Assembly: GCF_044324875.1 (NCBI RefSeq)
Contig: NZ_CP172185.1
Direction: 5' to 3' (one strand)
Length of the DNA: 64,000 nt
From: Escherichia coli
Lineage (GTDB): Bacteria; Pseudomonadota; Gammaproteobacteria; Enterobacterales; Enterobacteriaceae
Position 1 is the first letter of the stretch; each line of letters begins with the position of its first letter. The notes under the pieces are model-generated. The model was not told the DNA's origin and did no database searches. It worked only from the letters and a program-made list of their open reading frames with translations. The translations under genes were made by a program, and so were the position numbers. Positions 30,246-62,926 of the stretch are shown piece by piece.

Positions 30246-30357
30246 CCCCGGCTAGACCGGGGTGCGCGAATACTGCGCCAACACCAGGGAAATCTTGGCT
30301 GCGCCGTAAATTATTATGATGAGTTACAAGGGCACAGCACTGTTTTTCAGGCCGCAC
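30237..30357 (-). ncRNA. arcZ: ArcZ (SraH/RyhA) Hfq-dependent sRNA, antisense to the arcB 3' end
   Basis: Minus strand reads GTGCGGCCTGAAAAACAGTGCTGTGCCCTTGTAACTCATCATAATAATTTACGGCGCAGCCAAGATTTCCCTGGTGTTGGCGCAGTATTCGCGCACCCCGGTCTAGCCGGGGTCATTTTTT, matching my recollection of ArcZ including the terminal hairpin and U-run. Confidence 0.8.
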
Positions 30358-31128: not shown

Positions 31129-31853
31129 GTAAAAGCCGCTTAACGGTGTTTAGTTTCATTCGCCGTTTTCTTTTGCGGTTAATGGTTGTCCTCGCCGTTT
31201 TTTGGGGCGGGGGCATCGCGTTGTTTAGCGTTGCGCCTGTTCCTTTCTCAGCGGTAATGGTCGAGCGACAGGTCAGCGCCTGGCTGCATGGCAATTTTCG
31301 TTACGTGGCACATTCTGACTGGGTCAGTATGGATCAAATCTCGCCGTGGATGGGACTGGCGGTGATTGCCGCAGAAGATCAGACATTTCCTGAGCACTGG
31401 GGCTTTGATGTCGCTTCCATTGAGAAAGCCCTGGCGCACAACGAGCGCAATGAAAACCGTATTCGCGGTGCTTCAACGATTTCTCAGCAGACGGCCAAAA
31501 ATCTCTTTTTATGGGATGGGCGTAGCTGGGTTCGAAAAGGGCTGGAAGCTGGATTAACGCTGGGGATAGAAACTGTCTGGAGCAAAAAGCGTATCCTGAC
31601 GGTTTACCTGAATATCGCCGAATTTGGCGACGGTGTGTTTGGCGTCGAAGCTGCGGCACAACGTTATTTCCACAAACCCGCGAGCAAACTTACCCGCTCG
31701 GAAGCTGCATTACTGGCAGCTGTATTACCTAATCCACTTCGTTTCAAAGTCTCCGCGCCATCGGGCTACGTGCGTGGCCGTCAGGCGTGGATTTTACGGC
31801 AGATGTATCAGTTAGGCGGTGAGTCGTTTATGCAACAGCACCAGCTTGATTAA
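31125..31853 (+). CDS. mtgA: Monofunctional peptidoglycan glycosyltransferase
   Basis: 242-aa ORF, 4-bp overlap with the elbB stop. Confidence 0.93.
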
Positions 31854-32482
31854 GCTTCGCGCGAAGTGAGGGCCAGCGTTTTGCTCTCACGAGGTTGCAG
31901 ATCTTTCTGCAGGGCAATAGCCAGCGCCGGTTGGGCGATAAATCGTTTCCATAACCGCTCTTGCTTACGCAGACAACACCACTTCGACCAGGTCGCCAGT
32001 GGAATCAATGTGCTTTCACCAATGTTGTCGCAGACGACGGGGATAACCTCTGACTCACTGATGCGGTGACAGAGGATATTCTGCGGCTTCAGCGACATCG
32101 TCACGATACGGTTATCCTGCAAATAACGCTTCAGCTGTTTCAGTAACTGGCGCAGTTGTGCAATGTCTTCTTCGTAACGGCATTGTTCAGCAAATTCGGT
32201 CAGCGTAATGGAGGGCTTGCCGTCAAAATCGGCAATCACATCGTAGACATAACCGGTTCCGCAATCCGTCTCAACGGTACCGTGATAGCGCGGTATTCCA
32301 CTCCAGTCTTTTAACCGGCGACCAAGATGCGTGTAGTACTTTAACTCACGGCGGATCTCTTTATCGCCACCATCGCCACGATGGTAGACAATCTTAATAC
32401 AACGTTGGGCATCTTCCGGATGCGCATAACATTTCCGATGTCTTCCGGTGCCCAGGGGACTTTGTTCAGATAAGCGAATCAT
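31850..32482 (-). CDS. yrbL: PhoP-regulated protein YrbL
   Basis: ORF 31850-32539; start taken at [22 protein letters not shown] (210 aa). Confidence 0.85.
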
Positions 32483-32532
32483 GCCATCTCCTGGAAATAT
32501 TTTCTGACGATCTCCAGTATGGTCGATTAACT

Positions 32533-32549
32533 TAAACAAAACCTAAACA
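32533..32549 (-). promoter_or_regulatory. PhoP box (TGTTTA-N5-TGTTTA direct repeat) upstream of yrbL
   Basis: Minus strand reads TGTTTAGGTTTTGTTTA about 50 bp upstream of the yrbL start. Confidence 0.65.
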
Positions 32550-32694
32550 ATGCCTCTTAAGGTTTTCTTAAGGTTCTTCTGAAAGTGAAAAGCGCACAAA
32601 ATGTACAAATGACGTTGATTGAGAACGATTTCAGTACGCGCTTTTCTTATTGTCGGGGGAGCTTGAAGGGATTTGAATGTCAAAGTGATGAAGA

Positions 32695-32967
32695 TTAATC
32701 TTCATCAAAACCAGAATTAAAGAGGGCGATAACGGCGGCCAGTGCTTCCTCTTCCTGTGGACCGGTCGCTTCAACTTCAATCTGCCGTCCTTTGGCAGAA
32801 TCCAGCATCAGCAGTGCAATAACGCTGTTGGCTTCAGCCTCGGTGCCTTCGTCATTACGTAACAGCACTTCAGCGTCGAAACCCTGCATTAATTCAAACA
32901 GCTTCATTGCAGGCCGGGCATGCATGCCCAGCTTGTTTGTGATTTCAACAGTTTGCTTGACGGTCAT
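32695..32967 (-). CDS. npr: Nitrogen PTS phosphocarrier NPr
   Basis: 90-aa [33 protein letters not shown]... Confidence 0.95.
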
Positions 32968-39680: not shown

Positions 39681-40658
39681 TTATTCAACGAGTATTGGCG
39701 ATAACCAGTACAACATCGCCAGCCATACGATAAATCCGCCAGTTAATAATACCCCTACACCACGGCCCGGTTGCGGGGAGCGCCGCCAGCATAGCAACGC
39801 AAAAATAATGCTCACCAGCAACATCACGCTGTAGTCACGACTGTACGCCAGTGGATCAATCTCTCCTGGCGTTATCAGCGCGGGTAAACCCAACACGATG
39901 ACAATATTAAAAATGTTTGCGCCAATGATATTTCCGACAGCAATGTCGTTTTCACCTTTGCGAACCCCCGCTATTGCGGTTGCCAGTTCCGGCAGGCTGG
40001 TTCCGATAGCAATTGCCGTCAGACCCATCGTCAACTCGCTGATGGCAAAGTAATTCGCCAGCACCGTGGCGTTATCAACCACCATCCGCGTGGCCACTGG
40101 CATGATGATAAGCGCAATGCCGAGCCATAAAAACGCGACGGGCAATCCACCGTCACGCGGCAACTCTGCAAGCTGCTCTCTGGTCAGGCTGTCAGTCCCC
40201 TGACGTTCAGCCTGACGTGCAAGTTTAACAATGAACAGCAGCCATAGCACAGCCAGAAAGAGGAGAAAGATACCATCGCTGCGACTAAGTTGTCCGTCAT
40301 AGAGTACGGAACCGGCCACCACGCTGACCAACAACATTAAGGGTAATTCACGGCGTAGAACATCAGAATGGACGGTAAAAGGACGAACCAGCGCAGCCAG
40401 ACCGAGGATCAGCAATATATTGATAATGTTTGAGCCGAGGGCTGTACCAACGGCTAAATCGCGTTGTTCGTGCAAAGACGCGGCAAGCGAGACGATGATT
40501 TCTGGTAACGATGTACCAATACTGACCACCGTCATGCCGATGATCAGCGGCGGGATGCCAAAGGTTCGGCAAAGAATAGACGCGGCAAAAACCAGGCGGT
40601 CGGCACTGTAAACGACCAAAAGTAAACCAACAATTAACAGTGCCGTAGCTAAAAGCAT
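39681..40658 (-). CDS. yrbG: Putative Na+/Ca2+ exchanger family inner-membrane protein YrbG
   Basis: 325-aa hydrophobic ORF MLLATALLIVGLLLVVYSADRLVFAASILC... Confidence 0.9.
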   Translation of the reverse strand: MLLATALLIVGLLLVVYSADRLVFAASILCRTFGIPPLIIGMTVVSIGTSLPEIIVSLAASLHEQRDLAVGTALGSNIINILLILGLAALVRPFTVHSDVLRRELPLMLLVSVVAGSVLYDGQLSRSDGIFLLFLAVLWLLFIVKLARQAERQGTDSLTREQLAELPRDGGLPVAFLWLGIALIIMPVATRMVVDNATVLANYFAISELTMGLTAIAIGTSLPELATAIAGVRKGENDIAVGNIIGANIFNIVIVLGLPALITPGEIDPLAYSRDYSVMLLVSIIFALLCWRRSPQPGRGVGVLLTGGFIVWLAMLYWLSPILVE

Positions 40659-51972: not shown

Positions 51973-52048
51973 AATCTCGCGCTAACAACCTGGAATCGAG
52001 CCGTCATACTACGGCGCAACGCCCTATAAAGTAAACGATGACCCTTCG

Positions 52049-52125
52049 GGAACTTCAGGGTAAAATGACTATCAAAATGTGAATTGTAGCTGACCTGGGA
52101 CTTGTACCCGGGTCGGTATTTTTTT
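52049..52125 (+). promoter_or_regulatory. greA leader: sigma-E-type promoter followed by an intrinsic terminator (GraL-type leader RNA)
   Basis: GGAACTT, 16-bp spacer, TCAAA (52049-52076); then GACCTGGG...CCCGGGTC hairpin plus TTTTTTT (52092-52125) upstream of greA. Confidence 0.45.
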
Positions 52126-58776: not shown

Positions 58777-58863
58777 GCCGAGGTGGTGGAATTGGTAGAC
58801 ACGCTACCTTGAGGTGGTAGTGCCCAATAGGGCTTACGGGTTCAAGTCCCGTCCTCGGTACCA
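58777..58863 (+). tRNA. leuU: tRNA-Leu (anticodon GAG)
   Basis: GCCGAGGTGGTGGAATTGGTAGACACGCTACCTTGAGGTGGTAGTGCCCAATAGGGCTTACGGGTTCAAGTCCCGTCCTCGGTACCA; cloverleaf with long variable arm and encoded CCA. Confidence 0.93.
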
Positions 58864-62643: not shown

Positions 62644-62720
<77 letters not shown>

Positions 62721-62842
62721 CTTTCCCTTAGAGTCCTTTTTCAAATATACTGTGAAGACTTCGGCCTTCGTAGTGGGATTTGAAAAAATCCTTCTGGAAA
62801 GTGCTCCAGACCGCAGTTGCGGTTATAGGGTTCAGTTATATA

Positions 62843-62868
62843 AAGCCCCGATTTATCGGGGTTTTTTG
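62843..62868 (+). terminator. Intrinsic terminator/attenuator between metY and rimP
   Basis: AAGCCCCGATTTATCGGGGTTTTTTGTT. Confidence 0.8.
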
Positions 62869-62926
62869 TTATCTGACTACAGAATAACTGGGCTTTAGGC
62901 CCTTTTTTTATGTCTTGGGGGTGGGC

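Follow-up and report, generated by a model that had tools for sequence, protein, structure and literature searches.

Does the direct hexamer repeat in front of the yrbL gene of Escherichia coli act as an operator for the magnesium-sensing regulator PhoP, and what else does the short region between npr and yrbL hold that could control this gene? We addressed this question in a stretch of 64,000 nucleotides of E. coli chromosomal DNA (NCBI RefSeq contig NZ_CP172185.1), referred to here as the window. The repeat, TGTTTA-N5-TGTTTA, is almost certainly the operator at which phosphorylated PhoP (PhoP-P) acts on a sigma-70 promoter of yrbL, with activation of the class II type that would be dampened by PmrA. 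The yrbL PhoP box as such is already known and belongs to ordinary, textbook-level biology; an initial annotation of the same DNA had likewise filed it under known biology, and the repeat is indeed the published yrbL PhoP box. The primary work in E. coli is reportedly that of Minagawa et al. 2003 (J. Bacteriol.) and Zwir et al. 2005 (PNAS). The box confirms the start codon of yrbL, and its importance beyond annotation is small. With its adjoining PmrA/BasR operator, the locus is a clean case of a class II-type promoter under PhoP, and knowing more about its control could point to the conditions in which YrbL, a protein without an assigned function, acts.

PhoP and PmrA/BasR boxes upstream of yrbL

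On the minus strand, which is the strand of yrbL, the reverse complement of positions 32533..32549 reads TGTTTAGGTTTTGTTTA, that is TGTTTA-GGTTT-TGTTTA in direct orientation, without any mismatch to the PhoP consensus (T/G)GTTTA-N5-(T/G)GTTTA (Table 1). The initial annotation had placed a perfect TGTTTA-N5-TGTTTA repeat on the yrbL strand, about 50 bp ahead of the start codon, and the sequence bears out its coordinates, its strand and the word 'perfect'; the distance between the 3' end of the box (32533) and the A of the yrbL ATG (32482) is exactly 50 nt. Lone TGTTTA hexamers are frequent, with 40 in the window on the two strands together. The exact TGTTTA-N5-TGTTTA motif, searched on both strands of the 64-kb window, has a single occurrence (32549..32533), is expected from base composition about 0.006 times per window of this length, and was absent from 100 of 100 dinucleotide-preserving shuffles of the window. 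Within the npr-yrbL interval, neither strand carries a KGTTTA half-site besides the two of the box itself. With up to one mismatch to the degenerate consensus allowed, just one extra site was found in the window, at 40623..40639 (chance mean 0.66). This relative (TGTTAATTGTTGGTTTA, minus strand, one mismatch) sits 35 nt into the 5' end of an open reading frame of 325 aa (39681..40658), and it was dropped as a second PhoP site, its occurrence being at chance level.

Table 1 Features of the yrbL promoter region and its neighbourhood, in window coordinates
Feature	Position	Strand	Details and basis
20-nt invariant block	32608..32589	minus	TTGTACATTTTGTGCGCTTT; consensus TTGTACATTTnGTGCkCTTT; followed after about 17 nt by the PmrA box
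PmrA/BasR box	32556..32572	minus	CTTAAG-AAAAC-CTTAAG; half-sites 32572..32567 and 32561..32556; spacer 32566..32562
PhoP box	32533..32549	minus	TGTTTA-GGTTT-TGTTTA; half-sites 32549..32544 and 32538..32533; spacer 32543..32539
Weak -35	32540..32545	minus	TAGGTT; 2/6 matches to TTGACA; within the PhoP box; spacer of 18 nt to the -10
-10 hexamer	32521..32516	minus	CATACT; same hexamer and spacing as Salmonella yrbL, Zwir 2012, Tables 1 and 2 (PMC3335776)
Putative transcription start zone	32508..32514	minus	transferred from Zwir 2012 via alignments A1 and A2
Shine-Dalgarno	32492..32488	minus	AGGAG; sequence; conserved in alignment A1
yrbL CDS	31850..32482 (ATG 32482)	minus	210 aa + stop; PF10707, RefSeq annotation
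npr	32967..32695	minus	PTS-HPr family; upstream neighbour of yrbL, same strand
mtgA			on the other side of yrbL, convergent toward yrbL

A second direct repeat adjoins the PhoP box. The sequence CTTAAG-N5-CTTAAG at 32556..32572 is an exact match to YTTAAK-N5-YTTAAK and is unique in the 64-kb window. It lies upstream of the PhoP box, with a gap of 6 nt (32555..32550) and a start-to-start distance of 23 nt, and the four hexamers of the two boxes start 11, 12 and 11 nt apart and form one phased array. Previous studies describe yrbL as a target of PmrA repression in E. coli and, by prediction, in Salmonella, and place the PmrA box at a distance of about 24 bp from the PhoP box (PMC3335776, PMC2681069, PMC4196223). 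The CTTAAG repeat is this published PmrA repressor site of yrbL. In iron-adapted E. coli B, RNA-seq showed yrbL to be down wherever basR/eptA were up (PMC13405929), and this correlation is consistent with PmrA repression.

The close packing of the two boxes raises the question whether PmrA/BasR might also contest the PhoP repeat itself and repress yrbL partly by occupying it. Besides the published repression and the single 11/12/11-nt phase of the four half-sites, the composition of the repeat lends this idea some appeal, as the 3' PhoP half-site together with the next two bases contains TTTAAG (32536..32531), a PmrA-type half-site, and the position of the PhoP box matches YTTAAK-N5-YTTAAK with 0 mismatches in Citrobacter amalonaticus, in Citrobacter NCU1 and in an Enterobacter hormaechei locus. 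However, the first PhoP half-site of the window reads TTTAGG in the PmrA register, with one mismatch, and the published PmrA box at about 24 bp is the separate CTTAAG repeat. We therefore consider a shared box improbable for this promoter and treat the two repeats as separate operators, the TGTTTA repeat for PhoP and the CTTAAG repeat for PmrA/BasR.

Core promoter and PhoP control

The PhoP box ends 11 nt before the -10 hexamer CATACT (gap 32532..32522), which is the same in 12/12 sequences of alignment A1 and in the majority of those in A2. A consensus sigma-70 scan of 32300..32800 yielded no self-sufficient promoter, as expected for a promoter that depends on an activator, and this result was not counted against the promoter. 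Since the box overlaps the poor -35 and ends 11 nt before the -10, bound PhoP would substitute for the -35 contact. In all, the region combines a consensus box, its single occurrence, its location on the same strand as the gene, the 11 nt to the -10 and an overlapped, poor -35, which are the sequence features of an architecture I promoter.

This arrangement has been described in detail for Salmonella. Zwir et al. 2012 (PMC3335776) classified Salmonella yrbL as a PhoP-activated promoter of architecture I with one box in direct orientation, TCGTTTAGGTTTTGTTTAA. It is followed after 11 nt by the -10 CATACT (12 nt in the other members of the class) and overlaps a -35 TAGGTT with four mismatches and a spacer of 18 (PMC3335776). 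A single transcription start, giving a leader of 32 nt, was seen at low Mg2+ in the wild type but not in a phoP mutant; the start was determined by S1 mapping (Fig. S1A), and binding of PhoP-P was demonstrated by a DNase I footprint (Fig. S3A; both according to the supplement legends of PMC3335776). For Shigella flexneri, Lin et al. 2018 (PMC5775216) predicted a 19-mer yrbL site, tTGTTTAggtttTGTTTAa, which is identical to the window. An upstream fragment carrying tTGTTTAggtttTGTTTAa was shifted by PhoP-P in an EMSA, and yrbL fell to 0.02x in the microarray (about a 50-fold drop) and to 0.07x in qRT-PCR upon deletion of phoPQ (PMC5775216). Regarding E. coli, yrbL has been grouped with the classical PhoP targets (PMC2789325), and a reporter of its promoter responded to induced PhoP, with a weak and noisy signal compared to slyB, phoP and pmrD (PMC13215669).

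The initial annotation had proposed that the repeat fits the PhoP-activated promoter architecture reported for yrbL, and had suggested a comparison with published PhoP footprints. The proposal is supported by these data: spacing and -10 are the same as in Salmonella, the 19-mer is the same as in Shigella, and the box of the window is orthologous to the Salmonella yrbL site footprinted with DNase I. It had also named a mapped start incompatible with this spacing as an argument against the box. The Salmonella start is not of this kind, as it lies just past the -10 and 27 nt from the centre of the box, compared to 31-33 nt in other architecture I promoters (PMC3335776).

The position of the E. 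coli start can be estimated from the Salmonella data. The distance from CATACT to the ATG is 34 nt in Salmonella and 33 nt in E. coli, and the Salmonella leader is 1 nt longer than that of the window. With a leader of 32 nt, +1 in Salmonella is the third base past the hexamer, and its equivalent in the window would be around A 32513 (after CATACT-GG). However, the S1 start of Salmonella then lies 2 nt past the predicted -10, which is unusually short, so that either the start or the hexamer assignment is slightly off. By the alignment, we infer an E. coli start at about 32513, or at 32510..32508 if the canonical spacing of 6-8 nt from the -10 is applied. Across both choices, the PhoP box would span roughly -36..-20 to -41..-25 and cover the -35 position. 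Kim 2012 and the Cappable-seq paper have no yrbL entry in their supplements. A consensus scan for intrinsic terminators between npr and yrbL (32483..32694) gave no hit in this strain, and, judging from the sequence, read-through from the rpoN-npr operon into yrbL is possible. In C. amalonaticus, the npr-yrbL spacer contains a clear npr terminator.

Based on these features and on the published data, the following course of events may be proposed for yrbL. Low Mg2+ or other signals activating PhoQ would lead to phosphorylation of PhoP, and a PhoP dimer would bind both TGTTTA half-sites head-to-tail. Placed on the box, PhoP would replace the missing -35 contact and recruit RNA polymerase to CATACT in the class II-type manner of architecture I, and transcription would begin a few nucleotides past CATACT, so that the yrbL ATG would be preceded by a leader of about 26-31 nt. 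A PmrA/BasR dimer on the adjacent CTTAAG-N5-CTTAAG repeat would dampen this activation. Those parts of the model that concern sequence, uniqueness, geometry, K-12 identity and conservation were observed directly; PhoP-P binding, PhoP-dependent transcription, the Salmonella start and PmrA repression have their basis in the cited papers and not in this analysis. The class II contact has been demonstrated for mgtA only (PMC3335776), and for yrbL we infer it from the position of the box.

The view that the repeat is a chance occurrence without any regulatory role is refuted in practice. Single hexamers are common in the window, and the one-mismatch relative at 40623 did arise by chance within a coding region, but the expectation for the exact motif lies far below one occurrence, the box keeps a fixed position relative to the invariant -10 across genera, and footprint, EMSA and phoP dependence have been published for identical or orthologous sequences.

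Likewise, there is next to no reason to read the PhoP repeat as the coding part of a longer YrbL. The program-made list of open reading frames does carry the frame up to a TTG at 32539, which would give a product of 229 aa with the N-terminal peptides MFKLIDHTGDRQK. However, the 210-aa product matches the Pfam profile PF10707 (YrbL-PhoP_reg) with E = 2.8e-67 and from its residue 2, an AGGAG stands 5 nt ahead of ATG 32482, indels between species 5' of this ATG are not multiples of three, and every annotation takes the ATG, among them that of RefSeq in K-12 and other strains. In addition, the mapped Salmonella start falls downstream of the equivalent of TTG 32539, and a transcription start within the zone proposed for E. 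coli, which is also downstream of this codon, excludes the 229-aa frame. The initial annotation had taken the box as support for the yrbL gene call and its start, and the profile match from residue 2, the AGGAG and RefSeq agree with it. In the preferred reading, the TGTTTA repeat is thus the PhoP operator of a yrbL gene that starts at ATG 32482.

Relation to known promoters and conservation across genera

The yrbL promoter of the window resembles its Salmonella counterpart in most respects. Both lie in the npr/mtgA locus and have a single direct PhoP box with the spacer GGTTT, 11 nt to CATACT, the poor -35 TAGGTT, a short leader and a PmrA box about 23-24 nt upstream. They differ in the first PhoP half-site, which is CGTTTA in Salmonella and TGTTTA in the window, in the second half-site of some Salmonella (TATTTA), and in the PmrA box, which reads ATTAAG-N5-CTTAAA in Salmonella and is a perfect CTTAAG repeat in the window. 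In a wider sense, yrbL resembles mgtA, phoP, slyB and pmrD, the promoters of architecture I, each having one direct (T/G)GTTTA-N5-(T/G)GTTTA box over the -35. In this class, yrbL included, the box precedes the -10 by about one helical turn, and the genes are ancestral and show early PhoP-dependent expression (PMC3335776, PMC4196223). In contrast to the other members, yrbL has a spacing of 11 instead of 12 nt (PMC3335776); it is, like pmrD, additionally repressed by PmrA, and its output is low. Together, pmrD and yrbL represent the PhoP/PmrA 'bi-fan' promoters, in which an activating PhoP box is combined with a nearby repressing PmrA box, a layout leading to negative feedback from the PmrA branch. 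However, the two boxes are almost contiguous at yrbL, forming the phased array with its 6-nt gap, whereas those of pmrD are about 38 bp apart (PMC2681069).

Promoters of the PhoB pho-box/OmpR-family class II likewise employ a dimer of a response regulator on a direct repeat with an 11-bp period, which replaces a missing -35. This likeness is established knowledge and was also part of the discussion in Zwir 2012. The pho-box differs from the PhoP box of yrbL in the sequence of its half-sites, in the regulator and in the signal.

The conservation of these elements was followed in alignment A1, consisting of 12 sequences from Escherichia, Citrobacter and Salmonella arizonae, and in alignment A2. 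The order npr-yrbL-mtgA holds in all genera compared for the promoter islands. The npr-yrbL spacer is mostly diverged, with a mean column identity of 65% in A1 and 52% in A2, and three islands in it are conserved, each at a constant distance from the ATG: the PhoP box (-67) with CATACT (-39), the PmrA box (-90) and a block of 20 nt (-126). The PhoP box and the -10 keep their offsets in Escherichia, Citrobacter, Salmonella, Superficieibacter, Enterobacter and Siccibacter, with diverging flanks. Outside Escherichia, the PhoP half-sites are weaker: CGTTTA and CATTTA in Citrobacter, CGTTTA with TATTTA or TGTTTA in Salmonella, and TGTTGA and CATTTA in Superficieibacter, while in Pluralibacter and Cedecea they can hardly be made out. 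Due to this degeneration of half-sites in several genera (for example CATTTA and TGTTGA), PhoP control of yrbL may not be universal. The PmrA-type repeat is kept in Siccibacter, Pluralibacter, Cedecea and an 'Erwinia sp.', which is at least as widely as the PhoP box. Cedecea and the 'Erwinia sp.' carry it with an inverted spacer, an arrangement permitted by the palindromic nature of CTTAAG.

From Escherichia to Salmonella and Superficieibacter, the conservation of the 20-nt block is as strict as that of the PhoP and PmrA boxes. The block shows 0 mismatches to its consensus in 12/12 sequences of A1 and one each in S. enterica and Superficieibacter, and its flanks are diverged. Its centre would lie about 85 nt upstream of the proposed transcription start. 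We considered and rejected a role in RNA structure, be it the 3' arm of an npr terminator or some other element: its fold as a single sequence is unremarkable (z = -1.8), RNAalifold gives just a trivial 5-bp stem without covariation, and an Rfam search of the npr-yrbL spacer including the block returned no family match. In C. amalonaticus, the npr terminator sits upstream of the block, which speaks against a terminator function and places the block in the promoter region of yrbL. A second copy was not found in the window beyond chance. To our knowledge, and as judged by eye, the block fits none of the RstA box, the marbox, the MlrA half-site, the Ada box, the CRP site and the sigma-54 -24/-12 element. 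Probably, the block is one more site of protein binding in the yrbL promoter. One may speculate, at less than even odds, that it is the operator of a further regulator acting together with the phased PmrA-PhoP array, through which the promoter would respond to a third, so far undescribed input. It is the sole element of this region that might be undescribed.

Variation within E. coli and further observations on the locus

A 501-nt query around the box was 100% identical to E. coli MEI003 and was found in 5,425/5,426 complete E. coli genomes, annotated there as npr | yrbL; the 76-nt promoter core is present in 5,409 of 5,426. In K-12 MG1655, where yrbL occupies 3,348,452..3,349,084, the promoter matches the window exactly from -126 through the ATG, and results obtained in K-12 are therefore directly applicable.

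The alleles of the box were counted by exact 30-mer queries in the 5,426 complete genomes, at least 99% of which have one of three variants. TGTTTA-GGTTT-TGTTTA, the allele of the window and of K-12, is found in 3,342 genomes (62%), TGTTTA-GATTT-CGTTTA in 1,195 (22%) and TGTTTA-GGTTT-CGTTTA in 848 (16%). The polymorphic base is the first base of the second half-site, at window position 32538, with TGTTTA in 3,342 genomes and CGTTTA in 2,043. Among the sequenced carriers of the C alleles are O157:H7 and ST131. The perfect repeat is the majority allele and not a universal one. Consequently, the terms 'canonical' and 'perfect' used by the initial annotation are right for the allele of the window but do not apply to 38% of the complete E. 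coli genomes, in which the second half-site is CGTTTA. The C alleles deviate from (T/G)GTTTA in the same way as the first half-site of Salmonella yrbL. The three alleles provide a natural test of how the quality of a half-site tunes PhoP output.

Two natural lesions of the promoter were also observed, and, like the alleles and the 20-nt block, they may be of modest use. In ST131 strain 4993 (L015), an 11-bp deletion at the equivalent of about 32562..32572 removes one CTTAAG repeat unit, and with it half of the PmrA/BasR box. In strain Ecol_AZ161 (L014), the IS66-family element ISEc23 (tnpA, tnpB) is inserted at or just past CATACT, with the break at the equivalent of about 32517, and splits the PhoP box from yrbL.

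Within the putative start zone, a GATC Dam site is located at 32512..32509. It is invariant in six aligned E. coli alleles and is not kept in other genera. According to one preprint, yrbL is mildly up in dam and dcm mutants.

YrbL is annotated as kinase-like, its function is unassigned, and its similarity to Ser/Thr kinases is weak (best E = 0.008). Homologues of about 50% identity, which were taken to widen the footprint comparison, occur on three metagenome contigs (L023, L024 and L025) at a different locus, directly after dnaE, and have no comparable promoter. They lie beside genes of the LPS-core type (O-antigen-ligase-like Wzy_C, the Kdo kinase family and GT2 glycosyltransferases), and on one of the contigs they form a tandem convergent pair. 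These neighbours hint at a kinase-like family acting on envelope sugars. Besides that, the N-terminal 129 residues of YrbL were found with 98% identity to E. coli on a contig of 420 bp in the assembly of Tannerella forsythia ATCC 43037 (contig135; L012), most likely an E. coli contamination of this assembly.

The yrbL gene is also known from work on transcription itself. The 'yrbL consensus elemental pause' (G-10 Y-1 G+1) of single-molecule and structural studies of RNA polymerase pausing derives from its transcription unit (31850 to about 32513, minus strand; PMC11260103), and the yrbL start site serves as an example locus in a 2025 NAR paper. Elsewhere in the window, Rfam matches at gathering score comprise the ArcZ sRNA (30250..30357, minus strand) and, on the plus strand, the greA leader (52003..52124), the rimP leader (62809..62909) and two tRNAs (58777..58860 and 62644..62717).
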